From: Candidatus Gorgyraea atricola
Lineage (GTDB): Bacteria; Omnitrophota; Gorgyraeia; Gorgyraeales; Gorgyraeaceae
Direction: 5' to 3'
NCBI GenBank assembly: GCA_030765235.1
Contig: JAVCCW010000010.1
Coordinates: 94,907-158,906 of the forward strand
Length of the DNA stretch: 64,000 nt
Under the pieces are notes generated by a model. It ran no database searches. It saw nothing but the letters and a program-made list of their open reading frames with translations, and was not told where the DNA came from. A program made the translations under genes and the position numbers. Of the stretch, positions 12,061 through 64,000 are shown one piece after another; within the stretch, counting starts at the first letter, position 1, and each line of letters begins with the position of its first letter.

Positions 12061-12108
12061 TGGCAAAATCTAACCAGGTTAGATATTTATTTAGATATTT
12101 ATCCTATA

Positions 12109-13101: not shown

Positions 13102-13208
13102 AATCCACCTAAAAAATCCTGCTTCGCAGGAATTCTGTTAGTTATTGATAATTATAGCATATAAATAGCAGCTACGCAACGATTTTAATGTCCTCCTACC
13201 CTTAGCTT

Positions 13209-13458
13209 TTTGCATCACAGGCAGGCTGGGGTCTGAGGCACATTAGGAAGATTTTGGCAAAAGTCCGCAAGGATTTACAGCGAGCCCCGTTCCAAATTCT
13301 TAAAGATTATCAAATAATATATCAAAATTGTACGCAGTTAGTTACAGATAATAAATCGAGAATCGATTAGAATTTGGAACGGGGCGAGCTGTAAACCGTA
13401 GCGGACGGCAAAATCTCTCCAGTGCCGAACGGCCCCAGCCTGTCTGTGATGCAAAAGC
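13209..13458. mobile_element. MITE-like long imperfect palindrome (two ~90 nt inverted copies around a ~70 nt AT-rich centre)
   Basis: Outer arms gcatcacaggcaggctgggg / ccccagcctgtctgtgatgc; inner arms agcgagccccgttccaaattct / agaatttggaacggggcgagct; no ORF. Confidence 0.55.
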
Positions 13459-16887: not shown

Positions 16888-16893
16888 AAATAG

Positions 16894-17018
16894 AAAATCC
16901 CAAATCCCAATAATACCAATACTACCAAATAAATCCCAATTTCAAAATCCCAAACATGTGTTGGGGTTTGGGATTTTGGATTTATTTGGGATTTGGTAGT
17001 ATTTGGATTTGGGATTTA
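16894..17018. repeat. Family A palindromic repeat copy
   Basis: Near-identical to 586-705 and 18210-18334. Confidence 0.9.
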
Positions 17019-17022
17019 TATT

Positions 17023-18183: not shown

Positions 18184-18209
18184 CCTAGTACCTCCTTTTG
18201 AAATACGCA

Positions 18210-18334
18210 AAAATCCCAAATCCCAATAATACCAATACTACCAAATAAATCCCAATTTCAAAATCCCAAACATGTGTTGGGATTTGGGATTTTGGATTTA
18301 TTTGGGATTTGGTAGTATTTGGATTTTGGATTTT
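18210..18334. repeat. Family A palindromic repeat copy
   Basis: Near-identical to 16894-17018. Confidence 0.9.
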
Positions 18335-18394
18335 CTACCATAAATATCTATTACCTTTTAGTTCTGTGTATAATACAGTAAACCTTGTAAAAAG

Positions 18395-20014: not shown

Positions 20015-20040
20015 GATCCTTATCCTTAATAACTCGTTGG

Positions 20041-20106
20041 TGTAAAGTGCAAAGTGTCAAGTGTCAGGGCCCTTTTGACACCTGACACCTAAAACCTGAC
20101 ACCAGC
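20041..20106. repeat. Family C palindromic repeat (gtgtcaagtgtcagg...cctgacacctgacacc)
   Basis: Other copies at 41376-41446, 45502-45531/45907-45944, 49389-49421; variant at 42903-42968. Confidence 0.85.
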
Positions 20107-49421: not shown

Positions 49422-50150
49422 TTAAGGTTGCCTAATGCCGTCTTTTGTGATGATTAGGGTCTTTTTCTCTCCTTTTTTACCAGGGGTGCCGAGGTTTTTT
49501 CCGTTGAAGGTCAGGGTTACGCCACCAGCATTGCCCAGCTCCAGATCTATCTGCTTTTTTGCTTCCCAACTATCAGAAGCGCCCTTCTTTAATATGCCTC
49601 TAAACAAGAGCTCTTTGCCGCTGGTGACCTGGACCCACGTGTTGTAACGCGCTGCAAGTTCGACCTTAAAACTCTCTGCTACCGCCGCAACCCCGGAGGT
49701 TGCCGTGCTCGCAACCTCCGGGGTTGCGACAACGGCTTGCCCCTTATGTTTAGTGAAAAGATTCCGTATAAACCTTCCCACCTGCACAAAGCCAAAGGCA
49801 AGCAAATACACGCTGAAAATAGTCACAAGCCCGAGTCCGATCTGGCGCTTGTGTTTTAAGAACCAGTCACTTTTGGACTTTTCAGGTTTTAAGGCTAACT
49901 GAGATCCGGGCTTTTTTTCTCCACTTGACAGAAATTCTTTTACTATTCTTTCTTCAAGCGCCCCCAGGAACTGCGAATAGGATTTAATAAAGCCTCTTGC
50001 GTAAAAAGGGTCCGCTGTCTTTAAGATGCTATCTTCTTCTATTGTAGAGATTATTTTCTTAGGTATGCGCGTTCTTTCTGAGACATCTTCTATGGAGAGC
50101 TGCCTTGTTTCGCGGATCTTCTTGAGTGTTTTTCCAAGTGATTCAGGCAT
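49422..50150 (-). CDS. rodZ: RodZ-like cytoskeleton protein (HTH + TM + C-terminal DUF4115)
   Basis: N-terminal XRE HTH LKKIRETRQLSIEDVSERTRIP; single TM; C-terminal domain. Contains GC-rich palindrome at 49687-49727. Confidence 0.7.
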   Translation of the reverse strand: MPESLGKTLKKIRETRQLSIEDVSERTRIPKKIISTIEEDSILKTADPFYARGFIKSYSQFLGALEERIVKEFLSSGEKKPGSQLALKPEKSKSDWFLKHKRQIGLGLVTIFSVYLLAFGFVQVGRFIRNLFTKHKGQAVVATPEVASTATSGVAAVAESFKVELAARYNTWVQVTSGKELLFRGILKKGASDSWEAKKQIDLELGNAGGVTLTFNGKNLGTPGKKGEKKTLIITKDGIRQP

Positions 50151-50151
50151 A

Positions 50152-50236
50152 ATCGTTTAGCCCGTTAGCCCGTTGCCCGTTAGCCCGTTGACCCATTAAC
50201 GGGCAAACGGGCTAAACGGGCAACGGGCTAAACGGA
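50152..50236. repeat. Family D palindromic repeat (cccgttagcccgttgcccgtt.../...aacgggcaacgggctaaacgg)
   Basis: Half copy at 52413-52452. Confidence 0.85.
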
Positions 50237-52411
50237 TTCGGAAGATTCTTCTTCCTTAATCTTGTATTCAGCTATCAGGATCTCTCTTGGCTTACTGCCT
50301 CTAAATGGGCCTACTATGCTTTCCTCTTCCATCGCGTCTATTAATCGCGCAGCCCTGGTGTAGCCCAGCCTGAGCCTGCGCTGCAGCATTGAAACAGAGG
50401 CCTGGCCTGTCTCAAGCACCATCTTTACTGCTTCGTCGAAAAACTCGTCCTTTTTAAAACCGCCTCGCCCAGACATGCTTTTTTTCTGCTGTTCAAGTAT
50501 TGCATCATCATAGATAGGATCTCTTTGTTCCTTTACTGAATTAACGACTTTTTCTATTTCAGCGTCTGTCAGGAGCGTACCTTGCGCGCGTACGGGCTTT
50601 GCGTTGCCAGGCTCTAAAAACAGCATATCGCCCTTGCCCAATAACTTATCCGCGCCATTCATATCTAAAACAGTCCTTGAATCCACTTTCGACGCCACTT
50701 TGAATGAGATCCTTGCTGGAAAATTCGCTTTTATTACACCTGTTACAACATCCACGGACGGCCGCTGCGTCGCGAGTATTATATGTATGCCCACTGCCCT
50801 TGAAAGCTGCGCGAGCCTCGTGATCGCATTCTCAACATCCTGCTGCGCTACTATCATAAGGTCTGCCAGCTCATCTATGATCACTACAAGATAAGGCATC
50901 TTTTCGCTGGATTTCTGGTTAAAGGCGTCTATGTTTCTCGCTACAGCCTTTGCAAGCTTCTTATATCTCACTTCCATCTCACTCACGACCCATTCAAGAA
51001 CGCCTGATGCCTTTTTTGAATCTGTAACCACAGGGCACAGAAGATGCGGCAGGCCATTATAGATAGCCAGCTCCACCATCTTTGGGTCCACCATTATGAA
51101 TTTCAATTCATCAGGCGTTGCATTATATATCATGCTCATTATCAAAGAATTCACGCACACAGTCTTGCCAGAGCCAGTAGTACCCGCGATCAAAAGATGC
51201 GGCATGTCGCCAAGATCTGCCACTACGCTCCTCCCAGCAATATCTTTTCCAAGCGCTATGGCAAGCTTTGAAGAGCCTGCCTGTTTCTGATATTCGCGAG
51301 ATTCAAGGATCTCTCTTAAGCCCACAAGGGATGTACTTTGATTCGGGACCTCTATGCCCACTGCTGATTTGCCCGGTATAGGGGCCACGATCCTGACTGT
51401 AGTCGCCTTCATAGTAAGCGCAATGTCATCACTTAAGGCTGTGATCTTATTCACCTTTACGCCAGGCGCTGGCTGCAGCTCGTACCTGGTAATAACAGGT
51501 CCCTTGTTTATCTCTACCACCTTTGCATCTATGCCAAAATCCTGCAAGGTATCCTCTAATACCCTGGCACTTCCTTCTAAATCCTCGCCCTTAATCTTCT
51601 CTGGCTCAGATGAAGGCATATTTAATAATTCCAAAGAAGGAAGCTTGTAGTCTCCGACTATCCTTGGTGTAAGTTTAACTGGTTTTTTAGGGGCAGGTTT
51701 TGGTTGAGCGAATATCTTAGGTTTTGGCAATACGATCCTCGGCGCAACTGGCCTCTCTACCTTTTTCTCTTCCTTGTCCCTTGTCCCTTGTCCCTTGTCC
51801 CTTGTCCCCAAGTTAACCGCCGGTCTCAACTTAGGCCTATCCTTAACCCTGACCCTCTTCTTGCTCGCCATCCCCGATATCAATTTCCATGCGCGGCCAA
51901 ATAAAAATGAAAAAATAGGTATAATCAAAAACTCTGTAGCAACCATGAGCGACAGGATAGCCAATGCAAGGGTTACTATGTATCCGCCGATCCCGCCAAA
52001 GTATCCAAGAATCTTGCTCGAAACAAAAAAACCAATAAGCCCGCCCCTCTCGACCGAAAGAACAGAATCTCCTGCGGCTGTAAGACTGAAGAACGCGCTG
52101 GCTGAGCTAAAAAGCAGCCCCAATCCTAAAAACCTGAACAAAGGTTTTTGTTCTAATCTTTCAGCGAGAATACCAATACCCCACGTGAAACACAAGAATG
52201 GAATAAGAAAACCCGCATAGCCCACTACCTTAAACACAAGCCACGCAAGATACGCGCCCACTATGCCAATATAATTTCTAACATGCAGATTCGGGGAGGA
52301 TGTTTCAAAGGAAATATCGTAAGGAGAGTAAGAAACCATTGCCGCCAGTAAAATCACTGCCAGCGCGAATAAGCTAAGCGAGATCAGTAAATCTTTCTTA
52401 TCTCTTGTCAT
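50228..52411 (-). CDS. ftsK: DNA translocase FtsK
   Basis: 727 aa; N-terminal TM helices, linker, motor domain with Walker A GTTGSGKT. Linker contains (cttgtcc)x4 heptamer tract at 51775-51805. Confidence 0.95.
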   Translation of the reverse strand: MTRDKKDLLISLSLFALAVILLAAMVSYSPYDISFETSSPNLHVRNYIGIVGAYLAWLVFKVVGYAGFLIPFLCFTWGIGILAERLEQKPLFRFLGLGLLFSSASAFFSLTAAGDSVLSVERGGLIGFFVSSKILGYFGGIGGYIVTLALAILSLMVATEFLIIPIFSFLFGRAWKLISGMASKKRVRVKDRPKLRPAVNLGTRDKGQGTRDKEEKKVERPVAPRIVLPKPKIFAQPKPAPKKPVKLTPRIVGDYKLPSLELLNMPSSEPEKIKGEDLEGSARVLEDTLQDFGIDAKVVEINKGPVITRYELQPAPGVKVNKITALSDDIALTMKATTVRIVAPIPGKSAVGIEVPNQSTSLVGLREILESREYQKQAGSSKLAIALGKDIAGRSVVADLGDMPHLLIAGTTGSGKTVCVNSLIMSMIYNATPDELKFIMVDPKMVELAIYNGLPHLLCPVVTDSKKASGVLEWVVSEMEVRYKKLAKAVARNIDAFNQKSSEKMPYLVVIIDELADLMIVAQQDVENAITRLAQLSRAVGIHIILATQRPSVDVVTGVIKANFPARISFKVASKVDSRTVLDMNGADKLLGKGDMLFLEPGNAKPVRAQGTLLTDAEIEKVVNSVKEQRDPIYDDAILEQQKKSMSGRGGFKKDEFFDEAVKMVLETGQASVSMLQRRLRLGYTRAARLIDAMEEESIVGPFRGSKPREILIAEYKIKEEESSESV

Positions 52412-52412
52412 T

Positions 52413-52452
52413 TTCCCGTTTCCCGTTAGCCCGTTGCCCGTTTAGCCCGTTA
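52413..52452. repeat. Family D half copy
   Basis: cccgtttcccgttagcccgttgcccgtttagcccgttac. Confidence 0.75.
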
Positions 52453-53190
52453 CAAAAATAATAGAGCTACTAGCCCAAGAATAATGCAATAAATGCCAAA
52501 CAGATGAAACTTATTCTTGTAAAGCACCCTTAATAACAATTTTAATGACAAAACACCAATAATGCAAGAAGTAATAAAGCCTATTAAATAAATCGGGCTA
52601 AATCCTGTCAAGGCCGGATCTTTTATCTTAAATAAGGCCGCGCCTATTATTGCGGGAATGGCTAATAAAAATGAAAATCTCGCGGCAGCCTGGCCATCGA
52701 GCCCCAGAAATAATCCCGTGGAAATAGTCACGCCGCTCCTTGATATGCCTGGCATAACTGCAATAGCCTGGGCCAGGCCTATCAAGATTGCCTTAAGGCC
52801 TGAAATACCACCAGAGCCGAATCTAAGAAAGCTCCCAAGGATAAGCCATATGCCGGTTACAACAAGCATTGCGCCGACCATCTTGACATTGCCAAATGCT
52901 GCTTCGATCCCTTTACCAAAAAACAATACGCATAATACAGTAACAGCAGTTGCCATTAAGATAAAGAAACCTATTTTTCTCTTAACAGTAACTGCCTCTA
53001 TTATATCTTTCCAAAATACTATGAATATAGCGGCCAGAGTACCAACATGCAGAAATATATCAAAACTAAGCTGCGGCCCTTCCATACCCATCAGCTTATG
53101 CATGATCACGAGATGACCCGAGCTGGAGACTGGAAGAAATTCAGTAAGGCCTTGGACTATGCCGGAGATTAAGGCTTGGAGGAAAGTCAT
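52450..53190 (-). CDS. uppP: undecaprenyl-diphosphate phosphatase
   Basis: GIVQGLTEFLPVSSSGHL N-terminal signature. Confidence 0.9.
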   Translation of the reverse strand: MTFLQALISGIVQGLTEFLPVSSSGHLVIMHKLMGMEGPQLSFDIFLHVGTLAAIFIVFWKDIIEAVTVKRKIGFFILMATAVTVLCVLFFGKGIEAAFGNVKMVGAMLVVTGIWLILGSFLRFGSGGISGLKAILIGLAQAIAVMPGISRSGVTISTGLFLGLDGQAAARFSFLLAIPAIIGAALFKIKDPALTGFSPIYLIGFITSCIIGVLSLKLLLRVLYKNKFHLFGIYCIILGLVALLFL

Positions 53191-53202
53191 ACTTTACAGC
53201 AA

Positions 53203-53272
53203 GAGGTTACGAAGGTTATGGAAGGTTATGTAACGTTCCATAACATTACGTAACATTCCATAACCTCCACGT
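53203..53272. repeat. Family B palindromic repeat copy (short)
   Basis: aagaggttacgaaggttatggaagg...cattccataacctcc. Confidence 0.85.
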
Positions 53273-53282
53273 ATTAAAACAC

Positions 53283-55358
53283 TTATTCCTGCGCCTGCTT
53301 AATACTCAAATTCAACCTACCCATATCATCTATCTTAATCAGCTTGACCTTGACCTTGTCGCCTACTTTTACAGCTTCCTCGACATTTTTGACAAACTTG
53401 CCTGCCAATTCAGATACATGGATCAGGCCTTCTTTTCCAGGGAAGATCTCGCAAAACGCGCCGAAATTCATAAGACGCGTGATCGTGCCCTCAAACACAG
53501 TGCCTATCTTGATATCACCTGCTATACCTTTTATGATCTCTATGGCCCTATCAATGGCTTCCTTGTTCTCAGACGCTACTGAAACCTTACCTTCATCTCC
53601 ATCCACCTCGATGGTCGCTCCTGTTTCCTGAATGATCCTCTTTATTACCTTTCCGCCTGGCCCTATTACCGCGCCGATCTTGTCCTTATTTATAGTGATC
53701 ATCTTTATCTTTGGCGCGTACTCAGAAAGTTCCTGCCGCGGCCCTTCCATTGCTTCCTTGATCTTATTCAAGATAAATGAACGCGCGGGTTTTGTCTGCG
53801 TCATAATCTTTTTTATTAATTCCAGGTCAATACCATCGATTTTCAGATCCATCTGGAGCGCTGTGACACCTACCTCAGTGCCTGTGACTTTAAAATCCAT
53901 ATCTCCAAAATGATCTTCAATGCCCGCGATATCAGTCAGGATCATGGCCTTGTCCCCATCTTTTACCAGACCCATGGCAATACCAGATACAGGTCTTTTT
54001 ATAGGTACGCCCGCGTCCATCAAAGAAAGCGTGCTCGCGCACACTGTTGCCATGCTGCTCGAACCATTTGACTCAAGTATCTCAGATACGATCCTTACTG
54101 TATAAGGAAATTCCTCAGCAGATGGCATCACTGCCTCAAGCGCCCTTGCTGCTAAAGCGCCATGCCCGATCTCACGCCTTCCAGGACCTCTTGCAGGCCT
54201 TGCCTCTCCCACGCTAAACGGAGGAAAGTTATAATGCAGCATAAAACTCTTGAACTTCTCGCCTTCCAGTGTATCAAGCCTCTGCTCATCATCGCCAGTG
54301 CCCAATGTCGTTACAGACAGACTCTGCGTCTGTCCTCTTGTGAATAACCCTGAGCCATGCGTCCTGGGCAGCACCCCGACTTCACACGTGATCTCCCTTA
54401 TGTCCTCACACTTCCTGCCATCTACTCTTTTCTTTTTTTCTAATATAAACTTGCGGACCTCTTCCTTCTCGATCTTCTCAAGCGCGCTCTTTATATCCGC
54501 GTCTTCTAAGGTCTCGTCCTGCGCCTTTAACTTTTCTATGACCTCTTTGCTCAGGATACTCAAAGCCTCTTCTCTCTGCTCCTTTATAGGAAGAGAGTTA
54601 ACTTTATTCAATCCTGACAGAGAAAGCTTTTTAACCTTCTCGCATAACTCATCTGAGACAAGCTTCAATTCAGGCTTGATCTTTTTCTTGCCTGCTTTTT
54701 TCTTTAATTCCTCTTGTAGTTCAATTGTCTCAGCTATGTATTTCTGGGCAAGCTCTATTGCCTCGACCATCTTTTCTTCTGATATCTCGCTTGCTCCTGC
54801 CTCGAGCATAACGATCTTGTCCTTCATGCCTACCGCGACCAGATTTAAAGCGCTGTTCTCCATCTCATCAAATGTAGGATTCACGATAAATTTATCTTCT
54901 ACTAATCCTATCCTCACAGCGCCCACAGGCCCTGCGAACGGTATATCTGAGATCGTCAATGCGGCTGAGGCGCCTATCAAGGCAGGTATGTCAGAATTAT
55001 TTTCTCCATCGCTTGAAAGCACTATTGCGAATATCTGCACGTCATTTAAAAACCCCTCTGGAAATAACGGCCTTATAGGCCTATCTATGAGCCTGGCGGT
55101 CAGGATCTCTTTTTCCGTAGGCCTTCCTTCTCTTTTGAAATATCCACCGGGTATCTTACCCGCAGCATATGTCTTTTCCTGGTATTCCACTGTAAGAGGG
55201 AAAAAGCCGATACCCTTCCTCTGTTCTTTTGAACTGACAGCAGTAGCCAGGACCATGGTATCTCCATACTGCACACACACAGAACCGCTTGCCTGCTTTG
55301 CCATTTTCCCGGTTTCAATAACTAAATTCTCTTTTCCTATCTTTCTTTCGACTTTCAT
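53283..55358 (-). CDS. pnp: polyribonucleotide nucleotidyltransferase (PNPase)
   Basis: 691 aa; two RNase PH domains, KH (..IGPGGKVIKRI..) and S1 domains. Confidence 0.97.
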   Translation of the reverse strand: MKVERKIGKENLVIETGKMAKQASGSVCVQYGDTMVLATAVSSKEQRKGIGFFPLTVEYQEKTYAAGKIPGGYFKREGRPTEKEILTARLIDRPIRPLFPEGFLNDVQIFAIVLSSDGENNSDIPALIGASAALTISDIPFAGPVGAVRIGLVEDKFIVNPTFDEMENSALNLVAVGMKDKIVMLEAGASEISEEKMVEAIELAQKYIAETIELQEELKKKAGKKKIKPELKLVSDELCEKVKKLSLSGLNKVNSLPIKEQREEALSILSKEVIEKLKAQDETLEDADIKSALEKIEKEEVRKFILEKKKRVDGRKCEDIREITCEVGVLPRTHGSGLFTRGQTQSLSVTTLGTGDDEQRLDTLEGEKFKSFMLHYNFPPFSVGEARPARGPGRREIGHGALAARALEAVMPSAEEFPYTVRIVSEILESNGSSSMATVCASTLSLMDAGVPIKRPVSGIAMGLVKDGDKAMILTDIAGIEDHFGDMDFKVTGTEVGVTALQMDLKIDGIDLELIKKIMTQTKPARSFILNKIKEAMEGPRQELSEYAPKIKMITINKDKIGAVIGPGGKVIKRIIQETGATIEVDGDEGKVSVASENKEAIDRAIEIIKGIAGDIKIGTVFEGTITRLMNFGAFCEIFPGKEGLIHVSELAGKFVKNVEEAVKVGDKVKVKLIKIDDMGRLNLSIKQAQE

Positions 55359-55381
55359 TGAAGACTCCCTTTCTTAGTTGT

Positions 55382-55450
55382 AGCTTTCAGCCCTCAACTC
55401 TCAGCTCTCAGCCTTAAAAGCTGAAAGCTGACAGCTGATCGCTGAAAGCT
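55382..55450. repeat. Family E palindromic repeat (agctttcagccctcaactctcagc.../...gctgacagctgatcgctgaaagct)
   Basis: Imperfect inverted repeat between pnp and rpsO. Confidence 0.8.
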
Positions 55451-55524
55451 ATCGTTATAATAAAAGCGGATCTGCCGACCCTAATTACCTGCTTAGCGAC
55501 CCAGGTCGTTAAATCCGCCCTTCA

Positions 55525-55794
55525 TTATTTCTTTAAGTTTAACTTTTTTACGAGCTCGCGATACTTGTCAGTATTTTCTCTTCTTAAATACTCCAAGAGT
55601 CTTTTTCTCTGACTGACCAAACGTAAAAGACCTACCCTGGAATGATAATCCTTCTTATGAGCTTTAAAATGCCCTGTAAGGTTATTAATCCTATTGGTAA
55701 GCAATGCTACCTGCACACTGCAGGAGCCTGTGTCTTTTTCGTGCTCAGCAAAATCCTTCACGATCCCTTGTTTTGCATCCTTCGCTAATACCAT
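55525..55794 (-). CDS. rpsO: 30S ribosomal protein S15
   Basis: 89 aa; ..[39 protein letters not shown].. Confidence 0.95.
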
Positions 55795-55821
55795 TTTTCT
55801 CTCCTTTGAGCTGAAATTATA

Positions 55822-56772
55822 CTATTTTTTACCCCTGCGGTCAAGCAATTTCTTCACGACCAACATATATCCCAATATCTTTAACTCATATAATACTATA
55901 AAAGGTAGATTCAATAATATGCCACGTAATGAATCATTCTTTTTTATGCATAAGTATCTATTCTTAATATACCTTCTCTTCAACTCCTCAGAAATACGGT
56001 GGACTAGGGGTTGGGGTGTCCTGTGAGTGGGAGGATCCACACCGGGCGGAGGGGCCCACGAACAGGATACCCCGACCTCTAGTCCACCCGCAGTTCCCCC
56101 TCTCACATGATACGCTAGTGCCTTCGGGTTATAATATGCTTTCCAATCCTTCTTCTGTGCTCTCCAACATAAGTCTAGATCTTCGTAATACATGTCAAAT
56201 CTCTCGTCAAAATATCCATATTTATCCCTTACATTCTTCAGCATGCTTTTTCTTAAAAAAGCGCATGCGCCGCTGGCTCCAAATACATATCCTGGCTCAT
56301 CATACTGCCCCTTGTCTACCTTTCCATAGCCTCTCTCGACTGGCTTTCTATTCTTGCCTAAAAATAATCCTGTTGAATCTATGGTCTTTTTATCCATTCT
56401 TAATATTTTTCCGCTTACCATGCCGATTCGCGTATCAAGACCTATCGCCAATAGAACCTGCCTCAGATAATCTTTGTCCAACACGCAGTCGTTATTCAGG
56501 CATAAGACAAAATTCCCTTTTGACGCATCAATGCCCTGATTCTGCGCTTTACAAAAAAGAAGGTTGCTGGTATTTCTGATCAATTGAACATCCGAATAAT
56601 ACATGGCTACCATCTCGATACTGCCATCGGTAGAGGCATTATCTACAACAATAGTCTCAATATCCTGAAAATTCTGTCCCCTTACGGAGTCCAGACACTG
56701 CCTCAACAAATCTTTCCTGTTGTAATTGACAATTATTATTGATATCATAGATTTAATTATATCATGAATCAA
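55822..56772 (-). CDS. GT2 glycosyltransferase carrying an in-frame 93-nt GC-rich palindromic insertion
   Basis: N-terminal IIIVNYNRKDLL..VVDNASTDGS; C-terminal ..RRYIKNRYLCIKKNDSLRGILLNLPF.. is normal GT2 tail. Between them lies a foreign 31-aa segment AGGLEVGVSCSWAPPPGVDPPTHRTPQPLVH. Confidence 0.8.
   Translation of the reverse strand: MIHDIIKSMISIIIVNYNRKDLLRQCLDSVRGQNFQDIETIVVDNASTDGSIEMVAMYYSDVQLIRNTSNLLFCKAQNQGIDASKGNFVLCLNNDCVLDKDYLRQVLLAIGLDTRIGMVSGKILRMDKKTIDSTGLFLGKNRKPVERGYGKVDKGQYDEPGYVFGASGACAFLRKSMLKNVRDKYGYFDERFDMYYEDLDLCWRAQKKDWKAYYNPKALAYHVRGGTAGGLEVGVSCSWAPPPGVDPPTHRTPQPLVHRISEELKRRYIKNRYLCIKKNDSLRGILLNLPFIVLYELKILGYMLVVKKLLDRRGKK
55997..56089. repeat. GC-rich palindromic element inside GT2 CDS (arms cggtggactaggggttggggtgtcctgt / acaggataccccgacctctagtccaccc)
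   Basis: 93 nt = 31 codons; locally very GC-rich against an AT-rich host gene; reads through in frame. Confidence 0.85.
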
Positions 56773-57945
56773 ACAGAAACCAAACCCTTATCACCCCTCA
56801 TATTTATTCCCTTATTATCCCTTATCTTCATCCGGCCTTTCATCTCTGGCCTTGCATACCCGGCCTTTGAGATGTTTTATGAAAACATCTTGATATTCCT
56901 TGCTATCATGATCTTATTCATGGAAAGATCCAGATTTAAACTGTATCCTAAAAATTTCAGTAACTTCCCTGTAATATTCCTATTATTTGCCTATGCTATT
57001 TCAACTATATTCTCGATCAACATACAAAACTCTATTAGAGAAACGCTTAAATTCATCAGTTTCTTTGCCATATTCTTTATGGTTTCCCAATCTGATGAAA
57101 AACAAAAGAAACTGCTGCTAAAGACCATTGTCATAGCTGCTTCAATAATAAGTCTGTATTCAATATACCAGTACTTCTGGGGATATGGACGCACACTAGA
57201 TTATCTACAAAAAACCAACAGCGATTTTCTCTCCACCTCTTCCTATGCCCGCGACATCCTGCTCTCAAAACGCGCAATAGGAACATTTCCCTCTCCGAAT
57301 ATCTTAGCTGGATACTTGATAATAATGTTTTTTCTCGCAATGCACTTACAGCGTCGCATTTCGCTAGTTCTAATCACTGCTGCGTTAATCCTCACTAAAT
57401 CCATGGGCGCGTGGTTAAGTCTTATTGCTGCACTGATCTACCTCGGTAACTTCGTAAGTTACCCAAAGGGTAACTTACGAAGTTACCGAGGTAAGTTAAT
57501 GGCAGTATTAATCGTAGCTATACTATGTTTTATCCTCGTGAATCGCTGGGAACGCCTGATGAACATGGAAAACCCGCAAAATTCCATTACCCAGCGCCTA
57601 AACTACTGGCGCACAGCCATAGCCATAATAAAAGATCAGGCTATTTTTGGAGTCGGACCTGGTAATTTTCAAGAAGTCTTCTTGGGGCATAAGGTAGGCT
57701 TAGGCACAGATACAAGATACGCGCATAACATATTTCTTCACATATGGTCAGAAATAGGTATCTTAGGTCTTGTAGGAGTCTTTTACCTTATTATTAATTT
57801 TTTCAGAAAAGCCAGATCTCAATCCAGCTATAGATTTATACTGTGCGGCGGGCTTGTGTTTATCCTGCATAATCTCATAGATAATACCTTTTTCATGCCT
57901 CAAGCTGCACTCTTCTGGTGGATATTACTGGCTTCTAAGGAATAG
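56764..57945 (+). CDS. O-antigen ligase/polymerase family membrane protein (Wzy_C domain)
   Basis: 393 aa polytopic membrane protein. Contains in-frame perfect palindrome at 57441-57491. Confidence 0.7.
   Translation: MNQTETKPLSPLIFIPLLSLIFIRPFISGLAYPAFEMFYENILIFLAIMILFMERSRFKLYPKNFSNFPVIFLLFAYAISTIFSINIQNSIRETLKFISFFAIFFMVSQSDEKQKKLLLKTIVIAASIISLYSIYQYFWGYGRTLDYLQKTNSDFLSTSSYARDILLSKRAIGTFPSPNILAGYLIIMFFLAMHLQRRISLVLITAALILTKSMGAWLSLIAALIYLGNFVSYPKGNLRSYRGKLMAVLIVAILCFILVNRWERLMNMENPQNSITQRLNYWRTAIAIIKDQAIFGVGPGNFQEVFLGHKVGLGTDTRYAHNIFLHIWSEIGILGLVGVFYLIINFFRKARSQSSYRFILCGGLVFILHNLIDNTFFMPQAALFWWILLASKE
57441..57491. repeat. Perfect 24-bp-arm palindrome inside O-antigen ligase CDS (cctcggtaacttcgtaagttaccc-aaa-gggtaacttacgaagttaccgagg)
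   Basis: 51 nt = 17 codons encoding LGNFVSYPKGNLRSYRG; words ttacgaag/cttcgtaa relate it to family B. Confidence 0.85.
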
Positions 57946-59603
57946 ACCCTATCCACGGCCATAAGTGTCGATGATCTATGAGAAACAGTAATCAGGCTTA
58001 TTTCTCCAAGGAGCTGTTTTATATTCAATAATATCTTTTCCTCGCTGGCTGAATCCACAGAAGACATTGCCTCATCAAGGATCAGGATCCTGGGCCTTTT
58101 AATTATTGCACGGGCAATGGCGATCCTTTGCTTTTGTCCTTCTGATATCTTGCAGGCATTTTCACCTATAACCGTTTCATATCCATCAGGAAGATTATTT
58201 ATAAAATCATCGGCCAAAGAATGCCTGGCGGCCTCACATATCTCAGCCCTACTCGCGTTCTTTTTTCCATAGGCAATATTGTTCGCTACAGTATCGTTGA
58301 ACAAAAAAGGTTCCTGCAATGCCATGCCGATCTGTTCTTTTAGGCTCCCCATCTTCATGTCCTTGATATTGACACCATCAATAAGGATCTCTCCCTGCCA
58401 TGGATCATAAAGCCTTACGATTAAATTCAATAATGTGGTCTTGCCAGCGCCTGAAGGCGCAAAAAAACCAATATGCTTATTGCCTTCTATTGAAAAACTT
58501 AGATCCTTTAGGATAGGCTTGCCCGGCATATATCCAAAGCTAACGTTTTTAAATTGTATATTGCCTTGACTGAAAACAATGTTTCTTGCGCCTTTGTCCT
58601 CAATGACCATCCCTTCTTCATCTAAAATAGCAGCCACCCTTTGACAGGAGATAAGCCCCAATACAGCTGTTTGAAAAAATCCTACAAAGCTATTCTGCAT
58701 AGCTACTAGCTGCCCCAGGTAGACCAATATCGCTGCAAGACTTCCAAGACTCATTTCTCCCCTGATAACCATATATCCGCCGTAAAAACTAATAAGGCCT
58801 ATAATGATCTTACTCCCCGCATTCGCGGCAAAAGCGCCAAAGATATCCAGCCTTACACTGCTAAGCTCTATCTTTATATTGTCCATCAACTGCCTCAGGT
58901 ATTTCTTCGTCTCGACATTTTCTTTATTAAATACCTTAATAAGAGGGATGTGAGAAAAAAGCTCCTGAATGGATTTAAAAATATTCTGAGAATTCCCGAT
59001 CAATCTTTCCCAGACCTTCCTTCTTTTATTGATAAAATAATATGACGGTAAATAGAGGAAGGGTGTGAGAAAAAAAGCGAGGACTGCAATCCTCCAGTTA
59101 AGATGCGATATAATAATAAGGATAAGCACAAGTTTAGGAAAAAGGGCTATGGCCCGAGGAAGCGTAGTCGCAACAAGATCTTTTACCCTGCTAATATCGT
59201 GATCGATCTTATAAAGATGCTCCCCTGTGCTTTTATTTTGAAACCAGCTAAGCGGAAGGATCTCTATCTTTTTAAAAACCTTCTTGTTTAGATCAAATTT
59301 TATTCTTAATTTTACATATCTCTCTAAATATTGCCCGAACCCGTTTATAATTCCTATAACAATAAAAACTGCCCCGCCTATGATTACCAGAATGACAAAG
59401 GTCTTTAAATCCTTATTTCCTATTGCCTTATCAACGACTAATTTTGTCAAATACGGATTGATCAGCCCCAGCAATGCCCCAAAACCACTCAGGAAGATAA
59501 TTGCTGCCCATTTTTCTCTATAAGGCAAGAGTAATTTTATAAATCTTAAGAAAAGCGCCTGCTGTTTCTTGTCTAATCTTATTTTATGCCGGGAAAAATT
59601 CAT
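57900..59603 (-). CDS. ABC exporter, fused permease + ATPase (no C39 peptidase domain)
   Basis: 567 aa; 6 TM helices then Walker A GAGKTTL, LSGGQRQR, Walker B ILDEA. Confidence 0.85.
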   Translation of the reverse strand: MNFSRHKIRLDKKQQALFLRFIKLLLPYREKWAAIIFLSGFGALLGLINPYLTKLVVDKAIGNKDLKTFVILVIIGGAVFIVIGIINGFGQYLERYVKLRIKFDLNKKVFKKIEILPLSWFQNKSTGEHLYKIDHDISRVKDLVATTLPRAIALFPKLVLILIIISHLNWRIAVLAFFLTPFLYLPSYYFINKRRKVWERLIGNSQNIFKSIQELFSHIPLIKVFNKENVETKKYLRQLMDNIKIELSSVRLDIFGAFAANAGSKIIIGLISFYGGYMVIRGEMSLGSLAAILVYLGQLVAMQNSFVGFFQTAVLGLISCQRVAAILDEEGMVIEDKGARNIVFSQGNIQFKNVSFGYMPGKPILKDLSFSIEGNKHIGFFAPSGAGKTTLLNLIVRLYDPWQGEILIDGVNIKDMKMGSLKEQIGMALQEPFLFNDTVANNIAYGKKNASRAEICEAARHSLADDFINNLPDGYETVIGENACKISEGQKQRIAIARAIIKRPRILILDEAMSSVDSASEEKILLNIKQLLGEISLITVSHRSSTLMAVDRVYSLEASNIHQKSAA

Positions 59604-59605
59604 AT

Positions 59606-60760
59606 CTATTTTTTAGATGTCCTTTTGAATGTCTCAAGCGATGCAGCGCGGGCATGGGCTACTTCGCAAAAATAATCTACCGGCTTATCTAATTCTCCTG
59701 TCTCTAAATGAGCGTGTGCTGGACACCAGGTACAGAGATTGATGATAGGGCAGATCCGGCATTTCTTCAAAAAATCTTCTCTTTTTGAGCGTTTATCCCT
59801 CACCCGAAGGACAAAATTCCGATATGCTTCAAGTAATGTCCCATTCTTAAGGTCATAGACACAATCCGGATGCCAGAGCGAAGAGCAAAGTCGGAAAAAA
59901 CCGTCATAGCTTACCGCAAAACTGCCGTTGCCTGCGCCGCAATGAAAGAGATGATCACAGTTAGTGTGAGCAAAATCAGGGTCAATGAACTTGCCGCAAG
60001 ATTCTTCTAATGCCTTGAAACGTTCTGAGTCATTTTTTTCAATTGAAACTATCTCTTCAGGAAGAAGCCGCTCGGATCTTATTTCTTTATTTCTTCCTGT
60101 ATCACCGTCAAAACGAAGATGCAAAAACGGATCAAAACGGAAATAATCCTTGGTCTTTTGCCTGCAAAATTGAGAAATAACAGTTAATTCATGGATGTTT
60201 GAACGCAGGGCCATTGTCTTAAGGCGCACCTTGATCTTGTTTTTGAGCAGAAGATCTAAGCCTTTCATAAAAGCATTGAAGGAGCCTGGATTTCTGGTTA
60301 CCTTCTCATAGGTTCCTTTAGTCGCGCCGTATACTGTTACTTCAATGTTGCGCGGCGGGTACCTTTTGAAAAATTTAATGTGTCTTTCTGTTATCAATGT
60401 AGCGTTAGTAAAAACCGAGACTAAAAGGCCTTTTTTCTTGAGATGCAGATATATATCAAAAAAATCTTCCCTTAAAAGAGGTTCGCCTCCTGTAATCAGG
60501 CACCACAATGCTCCTAAATCAGCTGCCTCGTCAATGATATTCTTTATCTGCTGAAACTTGAGCTCTTTTGATTTCGCGCAAGAATCTCCTGCTGGTAAAT
60601 TTATATAGCAGTGTCTGCAATTATTGTTACAGCGCGCGGCAATCTCTAAGTCAAAAGAGATAAGCTGCCTATTATTCTTCATCTTGTTCCAAAGGGAAAA
60701 CCGAGGCAAGGAAACTCGGGACACAAAAGATCTTTTCATGATATCAAACTCTTGATCCAA
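59606..60760 (-). CDS. radical SAM/SPASM-domain peptide maturase (paralog 1)
   Basis: CNNNCRHC (Cx3Cx2C), GGEPLL, C-terminal Cys-rich SPASM region ..CRICPIINLCTWCPAHAH.. Confidence 0.85.
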   Translation of the reverse strand: MDQEFDIMKRSFVSRVSLPRFSLWNKMKNNRQLISFDLEIAARCNNNCRHCYINLPAGDSCAKSKELKFQQIKNIIDEAADLGALWCLITGGEPLLREDFFDIYLHLKKKGLLVSVFTNATLITERHIKFFKRYPPRNIEVTVYGATKGTYEKVTRNPGSFNAFMKGLDLLLKNKIKVRLKTMALRSNIHELTVISQFCRQKTKDYFRFDPFLHLRFDGDTGRNKEIRSERLLPEEIVSIEKNDSERFKALEESCGKFIDPDFAHTNCDHLFHCGAGNGSFAVSYDGFFRLCSSLWHPDCVYDLKNGTLLEAYRNFVLRVRDKRSKREDFLKKCRICPIINLCTWCPAHAHLETGELDKPVDYFCEVAHARAASLETFKRTSKK

Positions 60761-61224
60761 AAAATAAAAGATAATAATCTTGTCTTGCTCAAAAAAGCAA
60801 TTATAAACCGTTCCAGGCCAAAACCAAGTTGAGTTTTCCTGCCTGCCCTTTCTACTTTCGACACAACGCCTAAAATGTCCTTCATTGGAATCAAACCGTC
60901 AGTCTCAACAGAGTTATCTCCTTTTATAAGATAATAATCGCCTTTTTTACCTACTACTCTATGAATAACAAGCCTCCCTGTCTGAGCGTGGATAAAAGCT
61001 ACTGGCTTACCAAAACCTATTGGATGATCAAGCAGCGGGGAAATAGTAACTACATCGCCATTTTTAATAAACGGTGACATGCTAAAACCCATAGCCTTAA
61101 ACCTAAAAGGAATTCTCATGCCAGTGGCAGCTTGAAGCAATCCAGTCATTGCTTCCCCTGAAAGAGAAAGTTCTTCTTCAGGAACTACGCAATATCCTGC
61201 TTTAATCTCGCTTGACTTCAACAA
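60736..61224 (-). CDS. S24/S26-family serine peptidase (candidate leader peptidase)
   Basis: 162 aa; GFSMSPFIKNGDVVTI resembles the catalytic Ser region of signal peptidase I / LexA-like peptidases. Confidence 0.6.
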   Translation of the reverse strand: MLKSSEIKAGYCVVPEEELSLSGEAMTGLLQAATGMRIPFRFKAMGFSMSPFIKNGDVVTISPLLDHPIGFGKPVAFIHAQTGRLVIHRVVGKKGDYYLIKGDNSVETDGLIPMKDILGVVSKVERAGRKTQLGFGLERFIIAFLSKTRLLSFIFWIKSLIS

Positions 61225-61504
61225 GCATTCTCCTTTTGAGTAATTCTTCGACCAGCCCTAATACATCTTTTTCTATTTCTATCTTAGATGATTCAAATTC
61301 TGCCCCCAGATCATCCGCTAAATCTTTTAAGCTTTTTTTTCCATCTATCCTGCGCCAAATTGCCTGTCCGGTCTCATTGAGACTAAATATCGCATCTTCT
61401 AAATCCGCTACCCCTGAAGTTATGGGAATAATAATAAACTCTCCTTGTATCTCTCGCGCGACTATATCTTCAGACGGTTTATAAACACTTTCGATGTGGC
61501 CCAT
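61202..61504 (-). CDS. PqqD-family peptide chaperone (RiPP recognition element)
   Basis: 100 aa; ..LNETGQAIWRRIDGKKSLKDLADDLGAEF.. typical PqqD fold signature. Confidence 0.8.
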   Translation of the reverse strand: MGHIESVYKPSEDIVAREIQGEFIIIPITSGVADLEDAIFSLNETGQAIWRRIDGKKSLKDLADDLGAEFESSKIEIEKDVLGLVEELLKRRMLVEVKRD

Positions 61505-61525
61505 AAATACCTCCTTCGTTTTCGG

Positions 61526-62698
61526 TTATTTTGTAAATTTCCTGATCCGATCCTTCCCGTCCTTGATCTCCCATGCCATTTCACCTTCTTTTATCAGGCC
61601 CAGAAATCTTGCCTGAGCATGGGCAATTTCACAATAATATTCTACCGGCGTATCTAAGGTGCCGCTTTCTAAGCAGGATTTTGCAGGACATTGCGCGCAC
61701 AGGCCTTTTAAAAAACATTTAGCACAGCGATTTAAATAATCAGGATTGATAGCTTTTATCTCTCTTACTTTTGGAAAAAAATTAATCAGCGCATCTTTAA
61801 GAGAACCCTTTTTAAGATCATAGACTGTCTCCTTCTGTCTAAGCAACATACAGGGCTGAAACATACCATAAGCATCCACGCATCCGCTGGCACGGCCGGC
61901 CCCGCAGGAAAAAAGTCTATCACCAGATGGCCGCATAAATTTTGAGCAAAATTCTTTCATATTATTAAGGTATCTATTTTTTTGGCGGGTAAGAACTCTA
62001 AGTCCCTGCTCTGGCGTAACTCTGAGTTTTTTAATTGATTCATTTTTCCGACTATCATACCTGCGCCGCAGGTTAAAAAACATAGAATAAGGCGGCGATT
62101 TGCCTATCCATGGAATATTTTTAGCCCATTTCTCGAATTCATCGATTTCATCTTTGTTAGGCGGCAGTAACGAGCTTTTCACTATAAAAGGGGTCTTTTT
62201 CTCCAGTAGTAAATTTATGCCCCGCCAGGCCGCTTCAAATGAACCGGAAACCCTGGTTACGCCTTCATACGAGGCCTTTCTCATCCCGTAAACTGTAACC
62301 TCCACTTTTTCTAAGGGCGGGATATGACTCAATAGATCAGCTAATTTAGACGTAATCAAAGTGGCATTGGTAAAAAGCAATACCTTTAAACCAAGCTTCC
62401 TCGCGAAAACATATAATTCCTCAAAATCATCCCTTAAAAGCGGCTCCCCTCCTGTAAACCGTACTGTAAGGCAATCCAGAGAAACTGCTTCCTTGAGAAT
62501 ATTTTTTATCTGACTAGTAGATAACTCTTTATCTTTGGCATTCAAATCACCTTCCGGCAGATTTATGCAGCAGTGAATACAGTTATTATTACAGCGTTCG
62601 GTAAGTTCTATATCCAAACTACCTAAAACTGGCATGCTATTCTTCCACAATAAAGCTTTACTTGTTTCCTGTTTTTTAACGTAAAGACTGCTCTTCAT
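61526..62698 (-). CDS. radical SAM/SPASM-domain peptide maturase (paralog 2)
   Basis: CNNNCIHC, GGEPLL, SPASM Cys cluster ..CAKCFLKGLCAQCPAKS..; paralogous to 59606-60760. Confidence 0.85.
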   Translation of the reverse strand: MKSSLYVKKQETSKALLWKNSMPVLGSLDIELTERCNNNCIHCCINLPEGDLNAKDKELSTSQIKNILKEAVSLDCLTVRFTGGEPLLRDDFEELYVFARKLGLKVLLFTNATLITSKLADLLSHIPPLEKVEVTVYGMRKASYEGVTRVSGSFEAAWRGINLLLEKKTPFIVKSSLLPPNKDEIDEFEKWAKNIPWIGKSPPYSMFFNLRRRYDSRKNESIKKLRVTPEQGLRVLTRQKNRYLNNMKEFCSKFMRPSGDRLFSCGAGRASGCVDAYGMFQPCMLLRQKETVYDLKKGSLKDALINFFPKVREIKAINPDYLNRCAKCFLKGLCAQCPAKSCLESGTLDTPVEYYCEIAHAQARFLGLIKEGEMAWEIKDGKDRIRKFTK

Positions 62699-62721
62699 TT
62701 GCTTATAAATTCCTTACATGA

Positions 62722-62913
62722 CTAAGAAGTTACATTCCCATCACAGTCAGCACAAACTTCCGGCATCTTACAAACGCTGTATGCTGTGCCTGCGAAGATG
62801 CTACTCTCTTCATCCTTTTCCTTGCAAGCTATCAGAACACCCTCCTCTGGTTTGCCTCTCATCAGCACAATCAGTTTTGGTCTCTCCCATTTTTTCTTCG
62901 CTTCTCTCTTCAT
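62722..62913 (-). CDS. RiPP precursor peptide B (leader MKREAKKKWERPKLIVL..GKPEEGVL; 4-Cys core ending -VTS)
   Basis: GGAGG 5 nt upstream of ATG 62913 (ORF track starts 12 nt earlier at 62925); immediately upstream of the rSAM gene; paralog of the 62959-63150 peptide. Confidence 0.75.
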   Translation of the reverse strand: MKREAKKKWERPKLIVLMRGKPEEGVLIACKEKDEESSIFAGTAYSVCKMPEVCADCDGNVTS

Positions 62914-62958
62914 TTTTACCTCCAATAAGTGCTAATAGTAAGGGAACAAGAACTATGG

Positions 62959-63150
62959 TCACGACGTCACAAGGACGTCACACCTCAGGTTAGCGCATAG
63001 ATCCACTCTAAAACATGATGCAAACGCGTTATCAGGGCCGATCATGCCGGGAAAAGTCTTGCAGCTCTGCAACACCCACTCTTCAGGTTTCCCTTTGGTT
63101 AAAATAATCAGCTTCGGCTTTTCCCATTTTTTCTTAGCTTCTTTCTTCAT
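62959..63150 (-). CDS. RiPP precursor peptide A (leader MKKEAKKKWEKPKLIIL..GKPEEWVL; 4-Cys core ending -VTS)
   Basis: Conserved leader with peptide B at protein and DNA level; alternative upstream start at 63174. Confidence 0.75.
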   Translation of the reverse strand: MKKEAKKKWEKPKLIILTKGKPEEWVLQSCKTFPGMIGPDNAFASCFRVDLCANLRCDVLVTS

Positions 63151-63180
63151 CTTTACCGCTTCCTCTGCATCCAACCTGCT

Positions 63181-64000
63181 CTACATCTGCCTCAAGGCAT
63201 CCACTATTTCTCCGCTTTTGTCAAAACGTAGAACATAAACAGGGACTCTTGCGGCTAAATTATCTATAACCAACAATGTCTTCTCCCACCAATCTACAGT
63301 TACAAATGGCCTTATCAAACAAGATAAGAGTTTTCTCACTATCTCTTTCTTGTCCTCAATACGCAAAATTTTATTTTCCAATGACTTCTCCAGAAAGAAA
63401 ATAGCTTTCAGCGCAGCAGAATTACTTGAGATATCAGGTATATCGCCGTGACTCCACGTCCCATAGATCCTAAACTTGCCTGCTTTTCTTCTTACGATCA
63501 TCCTGTCATCGCAAAGTATCTCGGCTTTTCCTTTTAACATTGTTGCCATTGTAGACTTACCTGCTTCAGAGTGCCCGGCAAAAAGCAGGCCCTTGCCTTC
63601 AAAATTAACACCGCAGGAATGCAAATAGCAGCCTTCTCTATCAGCTAAAATTCTTGCAAAGAGTATCTGATCAGTAGGGAACATAGTCAGAGAGTGCAGA
63701 TTCCCTCTTAAGAACATTTCTTTCTTATCGTTATAGATCCTGGCCCTGGTATGGCCTGAGTTAAATGTCGCAACGCAATGTGGACTTTTTCTATTCCCAT
63801 CTGGATAAATAACCCCAGAATAAATCCATGAGCCGTTATTTTTATATATTGCCCAAGGGGACCTGCAGTAAACCTCTTCGCCAAAATTCCTGCCGTTTAA
63901 ATCCGGCAGAGAAAAATGATGCCGGATATAAATAGTATCTTCTCTATGTCCATCAACCTCAAATTTTTTGAATTTGGAATGGAATGTTTGCTCATTTATC
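63181..64000 (-). CDS. HPr-kinase-like P-loop kinase (open reading frame continues beyond right window edge)
   Basis: GHSEAGKST P-loop resembling the HprK C-domain GxSGxGKS; the frame stays open upstream of the first Met to the window end, so the N-terminus is probably outside the window. Confidence 0.65.
   Translation of the reverse strand, partial: INEQTFHSKFKKFEVDGHREDTIYIRHHFSLPDLNGRNFGEEVYCRSPWAIYKNNGSWIYSGVIYPDGNRKSPHCVATFNSGHTRARIYNDKKEMFLRGNLHSLTMFPTDQILFARILADREGCYLHSCGVNFEGKGLLFAGHSEAGKSTMATMLKGKAEILCDDRMIVRRKAGKFRIYGTWSHGDIPDISSNSAALKAIFFLEKSLENKILRIEDKKEIVRKLLSCLIRPFVTVDWWEKTLLVIDNLAARVPVYVLRFDKSGEIVDALRQM

Follow-up and report, generated by a model that had tools for sequence, protein, structure and literature searches.

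What do eight closely packed genes of Candidatus Gorgyraea atricola, a member of the Omnitrophota, produce together? We analysed a window of 64,000 nucleotides (nt), the whole stretch at positions 94,907 to 158,906 of contig JAVCCW010000010.1, in which eight minus-strand open reading frames (ORFs) occupy 57900-64000. An earlier note on this DNA had described them as eight co-directional genes with minimal spacing and had proposed an undescribed biosynthetic cluster for a RiPP, a peptide synthesised by the ribosome and modified post-translationally. The ORF listing of the window agrees with this layout: all eight ORFs are present, all are co-directional, and they are separated by gaps of at most 45 nt or by short overlaps. 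We conclude that 57900-64000, together with the part of its first gene lying upstream, is a real and intact gene cluster for a ribosomally made, modified and exported peptide, the chemistry of the product being predicted from sequence. Taking the pathway proposed below as a whole, we think it fairly probable that these genes form an intact operon that makes an exported RiPP and belongs to a large, uncharacterised family of cassettes resembling the SynChlorMet (SCM) cassette. Gene orders are written with one letter per gene: K for the fusion of a radical S-adenosylmethionine (rSAM)/SPASM enzyme to an HPrK-like domain, p for a precursor, A and B for two further rSAM/SPASM maturases, D for the PqqD-family protein, S for the S26 peptidase and T for the ATP-binding cassette (ABC) exporter (Table 1).

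The first gene of the cluster differs from what had been supposed. The earlier note listed two rSAM/SPASM enzymes and, as a separate gene, an HPrK-like kinase; the ORF listing gave the latter as an ORF of 178 amino acids (aa). We confirmed both enzymes, A and B, and the HPrK/PEPCK-type fold of the kinase-like domain, but the 178-aa ORF was ruled out as a complete gene: its frame stays open to base 63999, making an ORF of at least 272 aa. By blastn among the fetched loci, a metagenome contig from JGI (L047, 2,180 bp), which shares its sample series with other contigs identical to the window, matched window 63101-64000 at 100% identity over 900 nt and extended 1,280 nt further. On this contig the ORF L047:142-2100 encodes one 652-aa protein consisting of an N-terminal radical-SAM domain, a SPASM-type Cys motif and the HPrK-like domain. 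The radical-SAM domain carries CNNNCRHC at aa 31-38 and scores 89 bits with Pfam Radical_SAM (cutoff 29.5). The start of the fusion gene, behind an AT-rich stretch, falls at about window-equivalent position 65139, and the cluster thus runs past the window edge, as had been expected. Since the kinase-like gene is an rSAM/SPASM fusion, the cluster has three rSAM/SPASM domains, the fused one being a third paralog that shares about 31% identity with A and with B. The same architecture, with a complete rSAM and SPASM portion N-terminal to K in a single ORF, was found in 64 related loci; 10 further K loci are cut short by the end of the contig, with the SPASM motif still visible, and K stands alone in about 5-6 loci.

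The K domain of the window contains a P-loop, GHSEAGKST, and the motif LCDDR, and the family pattern GHSxAGKST and CDDR is invariant. In a profile of the K family, H…GHSxAGKST and CDDR align onto the P-loop and DD site of L. casei HPrK/P. A search with Foldseek of the AF2 model of the domain (pLDDT 86, pTM 0.85) returned as PDB matches solely PEPCK (2e-7; ATP-dependent) and HPrK/P (1e-5). As modelled, the K domain adopts a kinase fold of the HPrK/PEPCK type that includes a P-loop and an acidic DD metal site. The cutoffs of the HPrK/P families themselves were missed, with 21-22 bits against 240 for TIGR00679 and 18-20 against 33.3 for PF07475. According to precomputed annotations, all of the best 120 among 1,349 homolog clusters retrieved with the K fragment carry Pfam PF27840 (‘ScmC’, SynChlorMet cassette protein C), and ScmC is also the best NCBIfam match of K. 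Through these annotated homologs, which are 50-80% identical to it, K is provisionally placed in the Pfam ScmC family. Judged by sequence, it is also distantly related to those HPrK-like kinases whose substrate is the C-terminal Ser of lasso peptide precursors.

Downstream of K lie two genes for small peptides, the putative precursors. Each has a conserved N-terminal region of 31 residues and a hypervariable core of about 32 residues. Both fit the scaffold of a family described below, with W9, P12, L14, PEE, C30-K31 and C57-x5-S63, and precursor 1 has in addition G38-P39-x6-C46 and C52. The two are 54% identical, the leader and the Cys/Ser scaffold being kept and the core divergent. The sequence of precursor 1 matches, without a difference, the ‘hypothetical protein’ P0001 from the metagenome-assembled genome of Ca. 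Gorgyraea atricola; precursor 2 is also annotated as a gene on JGI/ENA contigs, and GGAGG is found 6 nt upstream of its ATG.

Precursors in related loci were collected by an iterated profile over small ORFs, which gave 112 unique sequences. The precursor ORFs were co-directional with K in 116 of 117 cases. Among the 105 full-length locus precursors, the C-terminal residue is Ser in 89 and Thr in 11 (100/105 for both residues), compared with 15% of control small ORFs of the same loci, an enrichment with a binomial p of 3e-75. The leader consensus reads KKK-W(91%)/Y(9%)-x-x-P(100%)-x-L-I-V-L-x-R-G-K-P-E-E-x-V-L-x-x-C-K. The first Cys stands 21 residues past the leader Trp in 84 of these 105 precursors, and the last Cys stands exactly 6 residues from the C-terminal Ser/Thr in 78 of them. 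Independently, a profile of the two window peptides alone was compared with 1.84 billion representative proteins and retrieved 1,866 representative clusters at E ≤ 1e-3. Of the top 150 clusters, 146 were full length; 141 of the 146 end in Ser or Thr, 131 have the last Cys six residues from the C-terminus, and 107 contain four Cys. Four is the modal Cys number, and the pooled four-Cys set (n = 174) follows the pattern C1-x13-19-C2-x4-9-C3-x2-3-C4-x5-[S/T], with a semi-conserved G-P-x6-C2 motif. The C4-x5 spacing was observed in 161 of these 174 precursors, the five spacer residues being hypervariable. We consider that the C-terminal Ser/Thr of the Cys-containing precursors is probably acted on by the fused radical-SAM/kinase-like enzyme.

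A locus holds between 1 and about 10 precursors with differing cores. In L077 (8000-16700) and L056 we observed arrays of about 9-11 distinct precursors with a common leader and different cores, recalling combinatorial RiPP loci of the prochlorosin type. One 180-aa protein, P0125, contains two tandem precursor-like modules, each with leader, core and …S end; it may represent two precursors fused into one or a gene call with read-through. None of the precursors reached a Pfam or NCBIfam family, six diverse ones giving solely sub-threshold matches to lasso leaders.

The separate maturases A and B are 41% identical to each other and score 68 and 75 bits, respectively, with Pfam Radical_SAM. Maturase A has C36xxxC40xxC43 followed by the SPASM cysteines C265, C283, C325, C328, C334, C337 and C356, all 100% conserved in 57 homologs. 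Similarly, B has C44xxxC48xxC51 followed by C274, C292, C334, C337, C343, C346 and C365, all 100% conserved in 42 homologs, as are its C199 and C255. There is no fused RiPP recognition element (RRE) in either enzyme, nor room for one, since CxxxCxxC already starts at residues 36-51. Among solved structures, SkfB (1.6e-9) is nearest to A, with PqqE also found; for A and B overall the nearest are SkfB, PqqE, MoaA and BlsE, with E no better than 1e-9. No enzyme of the cluster reached a curated NCBIfam cutoff. For the three rSAMs (A, B and the fusion), scores with the cofactor-maturation families were about 60-63 against 381 for PqqE, 67-94 against 265 for MftC and about 95-127 against 500 for AhbD/NirJ. 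The cutoffs of the sactipeptide and ranthipeptide maturases were also missed, with 55-61 against 340 for PapB, 72-78 against 625 for StsB and 45-66 against 850 for AlbA.

The PqqD-family protein is well supported, with 57.0 bits for Pfam PqqD (PF05402) against a cutoff of 23.4, in line with the earlier assignment; below threshold it matches the PqqD of PQQ synthesis, lasso PqqD and ScmD. What had been called an S24/S26 peptidase can be refined to the Sec11/SipW (S26B) type. Its boxes G-x-S-M-x-P, H-R and G-D (G46, S48, M49, P51, D57, H88, R89, G102 and D103) are conserved, and S48, H88 and D103 are conserved at 95% or more in 42 locus homologs and invariant in alignment A4. Read as motifs, these boxes are the Ser-His-Asp signature of Sec11/SipW (S26B) peptidases. 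The best PDB matches of its AF2 model (pLDDT 76) are human SEC11A/C (E 3e-4), then LexA, SipA and SpsB, and its homologs are annotated as ‘S26 family signal peptidase’ in the source records. Its Pfam S24 match is weak, as is the Pfam HPr-kinase match of K, and with 33.4 bits it misses the TIGR02228 cutoff of 51.85. We detected no N-terminal transmembrane or hydrophobic segment; the maximum KD19 of 1.4 lies in a hydrophobic/amphipathic segment at the C-terminus. With this C-terminal segment alone and no N-terminal anchor, the peptidase would act on the cytoplasmic face. The ABC exporter, confirmed by matches to ABC_membrane and ABC_tran, has no C39 peptidase domain by Pfam, which fits removal of the leader by a separate protease.

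We then considered how widely these genes travel together. The best 120 K homologs come from Omnitrophota, Desulfobacterota, Aminicenantes, Poribacteria, Planctomycetota and Eremiobacterota and bear the NCBI label ‘hypothetical protein’ throughout. Scans with the K alignment, in which 536 of 600 candidate stretches were true relatives, gave 27 genome loci (7 of them close) and 80 metagenome loci, and the gene set of the cassette is repeated in 7 genome loci and in the 80 metagenome loci. Thirty loci extend 6 kb or more beyond K on its downstream side, and among them we found PqqD in 30, A in 28, B in 28, S in 24 and a recognisable precursor in 25. The dominant string, K-(p)n-A-D-S-B-(T), is that of the window, and many related loci have an ABC gene after the cassette. 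The cassette is conserved across Desulfobacterota, Chloroflexota, Aminicenantes, Actinomycetes and Omnitrophota; such an arrangement is far beyond chance. Its gene order is shuffled in L002 (DSKAB), L005 (pADSKpBT) and L007 (pDBKAS), which argues for a functional linkage rather than common ancestry of one arrangement. NTP_transf_5 homologs accompany 25 of the fetched family loci (L109 7237-8433, L056 5345-6550 and 23 others) and one is listed in the gene table of a further relative; they also occur in the distant loci L025-L027. In L109 a SAM methyltransferase gene was additionally observed next to the cassette.

A distant variant in Acidobacteriota consists of PqqD, one rSAM, a precursor and K, its precursors having a fixed C-x4-S spacing and a …GS end. 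In one locus of this phylum (L011, a metagenome-assembled genome (MAG), 10836-20105), a 3,090-aa ORF directly follows the K gene and comprises an S26-like N-terminus, about 10 DUF11 repeats, CARDB and a C-terminal Peptidase_C25 (gingipain-like) domain; similar giant ORFs were seen in L012-L016 and L018. Finally, in a MAG of the Actinomycetes (L008, 10500-15900), the coding sequences of rSAM A and rSAM B are each divided among several frames that overlap, and the Cys pattern of the precursor is lost, as would be produced either by decay of the cluster or by long-read frameshift errors.

Comparison with catalogued systems places the cluster next to, and outside, several of them. PqqE-like rSAM/SPASM paralogs, a PqqD homolog and an HPrK-like ScmC are shared with the SCM cassette. 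All SCM equivalog cutoffs (TIGR04249, TIGR04248, TIGR04250 and TIGR04251) were nevertheless widely missed: ScmC 36-37 against 125, ScmD 27.5 against 100, ScmE 87 against 400, and ScmF 78 (A) and 102 (fusion) against 400. Also, when compared by family models, the present cluster differs from SCM in that ScmC is fused to a third rSAM/SPASM and in having an S26 peptidase, an ABC exporter and an identified precursor family. To our knowledge, the TIGRFAM description identifies no SCM precursor.

The kinase, which the earlier note could assign to no named RiPP class, has precedents in Pfam ScmC and also in the HPrK-like kinases of lasso systems. PadeK and PsmK, two HPrK homologs, phosphorylate lasso precursors on the side chain of their C-terminal Ser, depending little on the remaining sequence, and leave a stable mono- or poly-phosphate on it; a DD to AA mutant of a lasso HPrK homolog is inactive, and the NTP transferase PsmN subsequently decorates the phosphate on Ser (PMC6993621, PMC8498205). 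NTP_transf_5 is the family of PsmN. Like the systems of PadeK (paeninodin) and PsmK (pseudomycoidin), the cluster combines an HPrK fold bearing a P-loop and DD with a precursor ending in Ser and a W/YxxPxL leader; the phosphorylated lasso systems also share with this family a PqqD-family RRE, an ABC exporter and often a PsmN-like NTP_transf_5 neighbour. In contrast to them, there are three rSAM/SPASM domains here and K is fused to one of these, and neither a lasso cyclase (Asn-synthetase-like) nor a B2 protease was found among the window genes or the related cassettes; the control locus L026 has both.

The K ORFs of L025-L027 have only distant similarity to that of the window (E 1e-4 to 1e-7). 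We had taken these Bacillales homologs for lasso clusters, which proved correct for L026 alone: it is a bona fide lasso cluster whose precursor, MKKQWIEPGLDVL…SSTS, resembles the family in its leader and likewise ends in Ser. L027 (Peribacillus kribbensis, 9458-13024) and L025 (Paenibacillus cremeus, 7015-10277) belong instead to an rSAM-free K-PqqD-S26-ABC family, encoding a peptide, an HPrK-like protein, PqqD, an archaeal/SipW-type signal peptidase and an ABC transporter. Their peptides are small, Gly/Asn-rich and Cys-free (…KKTYQRPLVLTHQPIVFETAQSWNKG…) and end in Lys. This module seems to represent a further RiPP-like family, likewise uncharacterised, that has the K-PqqD-S26 core in common with the present one.

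Maturases of sactipeptides and ranthipeptides (AlbA, SkfB, StsB and PapB) resemble the enzymes of the cluster in being rSAM/SPASM proteins that act on Cys-containing precursors with RRE-mediated leader recognition. They usually bear an N-terminal RRE of their own, whereas A, B and the fusion start directly at CxxxCxxC (residues ~31-51) and are accompanied by a discrete PqqD; moreover, sactipeptide and ranthipeptide systems have neither the kinase nor the S26 peptidase. The peptidase, for its part, shares with Sec11/SipW (MEROPS S26B) the fold and the Ser/His/Asp boxes (SMxP, HR, GD[N]) and differs from them by the missing N-terminal anchor and by its score below the TIGR02228 cutoff. Embedded as it is in a RiPP operon, it presumably cleaves the RiPP leader and not Sec signal peptides.

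The pathway that we regard as most likely would run as follows. Two 63-aa precursors are made, and their scaffold of C2, C3-x2-4-C4 and x5-Ser-COOH is seen directly in the sequence. The discrete PqqD would bind the W-x-x-P-x-L leader and present the peptide to enzymes without an RRE of their own; we propose this role from the established function of PqqD/RRE proteins and from the resemblance of the leader to the Y/WxxPxL leaders of lasso precursors. The three paralogous rSAM/SPASM domains (A, B and the fused one) would then install Cys-dependent crosslinks, most likely thioethers, as suggested by the conserved Cys scaffold and the precedent of sactipeptides and ranthipeptides. The ScmC (HPrK-like) domain would phosphorylate the C-terminal Ser/Thr of the precursor, a function to which the intact P-loop and DD, the near-universal C-terminal Ser/Thr and the precedent of PadeK and PsmK all point; the lasso cluster of L026 and the NTP_transf_5 genes in 25 family loci likewise support the link to the lasso kinases. 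The Sec11-like S26 peptidase would cut off the leader, plausibly between C and K of VL-x-x-C-K, and the ABC transporter would export the product. More speculatively, the C4-x5-S/T spacing could serve as a ruler that places C4 in the active site of the fused rSAM, and the fixed spacing together with the rSAM-K fusion suggests two tethered active sites acting together on C4 and on the C-terminus.

We tentatively put forward, as a possibility that is far from the most secure part of the model, that the cluster is the founding and experimentally tractable member of a new and very widespread RiPP class, most of whose carriers are anaerobes not yet cultured (Omnitrophota, Desulfobacterota, Aminicenantes, Chloroflexota, Planctomycetota and others). 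Here the rSAM/SPASM-kinase fusion would couple crosslinking of the last Cys to an ATP-dependent modification of the C-terminal Ser/Thr six residues away, yielding a C-terminal motif not seen before, a phospho-Ser/Thr cap or a macrocycle from Cys to C-terminus, on a hypervariable core.

Different explanations of the same genes have to be weighed against the exported, phosphorylated RiPP. The ScmC/HPrK-like domain might leave no phosphate, either because it activates the peptide transiently (phosphorylation, elimination to dehydroalanine or dehydrobutyrine and attack by Cys4, giving a (methyl)lanthionine-like i,i+6 ring) or because it merely docks the C-terminus for the fused rSAM. This would be consistent with a C4-x5-[S/T] spacing that is strictly fixed though the five residues between are hypervariable, and with the different yet equally fixed spacing of the Acidobacteriota variant. 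The covalent fusion of K to rSAM/SPASM in about 90% of decidable loci points the same way, as does the acceptance of both Ser and Thr, as for lanthionine and methyllanthionine. However, no lyase or cyclase homolog was found in the cassette, the relatives PadeK and PsmK leave a stable phosphate, and the frequent NTP_transf_5 neighbours suggest a persistent phosphate being decorated; we therefore regard this explanation as unlikely. A far smaller chance is given to the maturation of a peptide-derived redox cofactor, like PQQ or mycofactocin, for intracellular use. Pairs of rSAM/SPASM and PqqD are common to PqqE/PqqD and MftC/MftB, MftC acts on the C-terminal residue of its precursor, and MftC, PqqE and AhbD/NirJ are among the best NCBIfam matches of the cluster, yet all with scores far under the curated cutoffs; furthermore, hypervariable cores and up to about ten different precursors in a locus are incompatible with a single cofactor structure, and the cluster possesses a dedicated ABC exporter and a leader peptidase. 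The idea that the small ORFs arose by chance, the enzymes acting on a substrate encoded elsewhere, could draw on the failure of both peptides to match Pfam or NCBIfam and on a word-indexed homolog search with precursor 1, which retrieved itself alone. It is refuted by the 1,866 clusters of the profile search, by the shared direction of all but one of the 117 precursor ORFs with K, and by leaders in which P and W/Y are each found in 100% of cases, along with the C-terminal Ser/Thr enrichment (p ~3e-75). On both points on which the earlier note had staked its RiPP reading beforehand, conservation of the precursors beside the same enzymes and membership of the rSAMs in a cofactor-maturation family, the reading survives.

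Several observations nevertheless weigh against the phosphorylated, crosslinked RiPP as we propose it. The crosslink type, the phosphorylation and the cleavage site are all inferred. The match of the K profile to HPrK/P is marginal (E 0.03) and the Foldseek TM-scores are low (0.3-0.5), and the fusion to an rSAM could make K a docking or activating module, not a stand-alone kinase. The Cys-free peptides of L025 and L027 end in Lys, so that a ScmC-like domain does not invariably go with a C-terminal Ser. Also, none of A, B and the fusion scored with Pfam SPASM (PF13186), and in all three SPASM is assigned from the Cys motifs only; the 64-kb window contains no NTP_transf_5 homolog.

How much of this is new can be delimited. 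RiPPs made by rSAM enzymes with an RRE are already known, and SCM-type cassettes are catalogued in TIGRFAM and Pfam. Full-text literature searching, of incomplete coverage, returned no description of an rSAM/SPASM and HPrK-like RiPP system or of the cassette. The combination not found described comprises the rSAM/SPASM-ScmC fusion, the set of three rSAMs, the Sec11-like leader peptidase and the C-x5-S/T precursor family. Thus, with no curated family for the precursors, no enzyme at a curated cutoff and no paper found, the term ‘undescribed’ of the earlier note holds within the reach of these searches.

If the proposed pathway is true, at least 1,866 precursor clusters at 50% identity and more than 1,300 kinase-domain clusters, now labelled ‘hypothetical protein’, would form one RiPP family, and ScmC/SynChlorMet-type cassettes, so far bioinformatic entities only, would gain a substrate and a testable function. 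Phosphorylation of a C-terminal Ser by HPrK-like enzymes would extend from lasso peptides to rSAM-modified ones. An enzyme set that naturally tolerates different substrates, judging by its hypervariable cores and up to about 10 precursors per locus, could serve peptide engineering. Omnitrophota, as host-dependent nanobacteria, would also be seen to spend resources on modified peptides for secretion.

Table 1. Coordinates of the genes and peptide termini of the cluster in the 64,000-nt window.
Feature	Position	Strand	Remarks
ABC exporter	57900..59603	-	567 aa; fused transmembrane and nucleotide-binding domains (TMD-NBD); Pfam ABC_membrane + ABC_tran
rSAM/SPASM maturase B	59606..60739 (ATG, 377 aa) or ..60760 (TTG, 384 aa)	-	Pfam Radical_SAM 75 bits
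S26B (Sec11/SipW-type) signal-peptidase-like protein, presumed leader peptidase	60736..61221	-	161 aa; conserved boxes + AF2 model
Discrete PqqD-family protein, presumed RRE	61202..61504	-	100 aa; Pfam PqqD
rSAM/SPASM maturase A	61526..62698	-	390 aa; Pfam Radical_SAM 68 bits
Precursor peptide 2	62722..62913	-	63 aa: MKREAKKKWERPKLIVLMRGKPEEGVLIACK-EKDEESSIFAGTAYSVCKMPEVCADCDGNVTS
C-x5-S terminus of precursor 2 (C57…S63)	62725..62745	-	putative kinase target
Precursor peptide 1	62959..63150	-	63 aa: MKKEAKKKWEKPKLIILTKGKPEEWVLQSCK-TFPGMIGPDNAFASCFRVDLCANLRCDVLVTS
C-x5-S terminus of precursor 1 (C57…S63)	62962..62982	-	putative kinase target and putative ‘ruler’
rSAM/SPASM-ScmC (HPrK-like) fusion gene, C-terminal 272 codons	63181..64000	-	gene continues past window edge

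Within the cluster, the ATG of the gene for maturase B overlaps the stop codon of the peptidase gene as ATGA. On the 3′ side the cluster is flanked by a convergent Wzy_C gene (O-antigen ligase family), a GT2 glycosyltransferase gene, rpsO and pnp, which are unrelated to it. The 3′ ends of the Wzy_C gene (plus strand, 56764-57945) and of the ABC exporter gene overlap by 46 nt (57900-57945), and no terminator-like site was found between these two genes. Promoter and terminator scans gave matches no more frequent than in shuffled controls. The GC content of the cluster, about 0.39-0.42, is like that of the adjacent glycosyltransferase/Wzy region, so that composition gives no sign of recent transfer. 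Over 50000-64000 the genes lie nearly all on the minus strand and the GC skew is persistently negative (-0.02 to -0.30).

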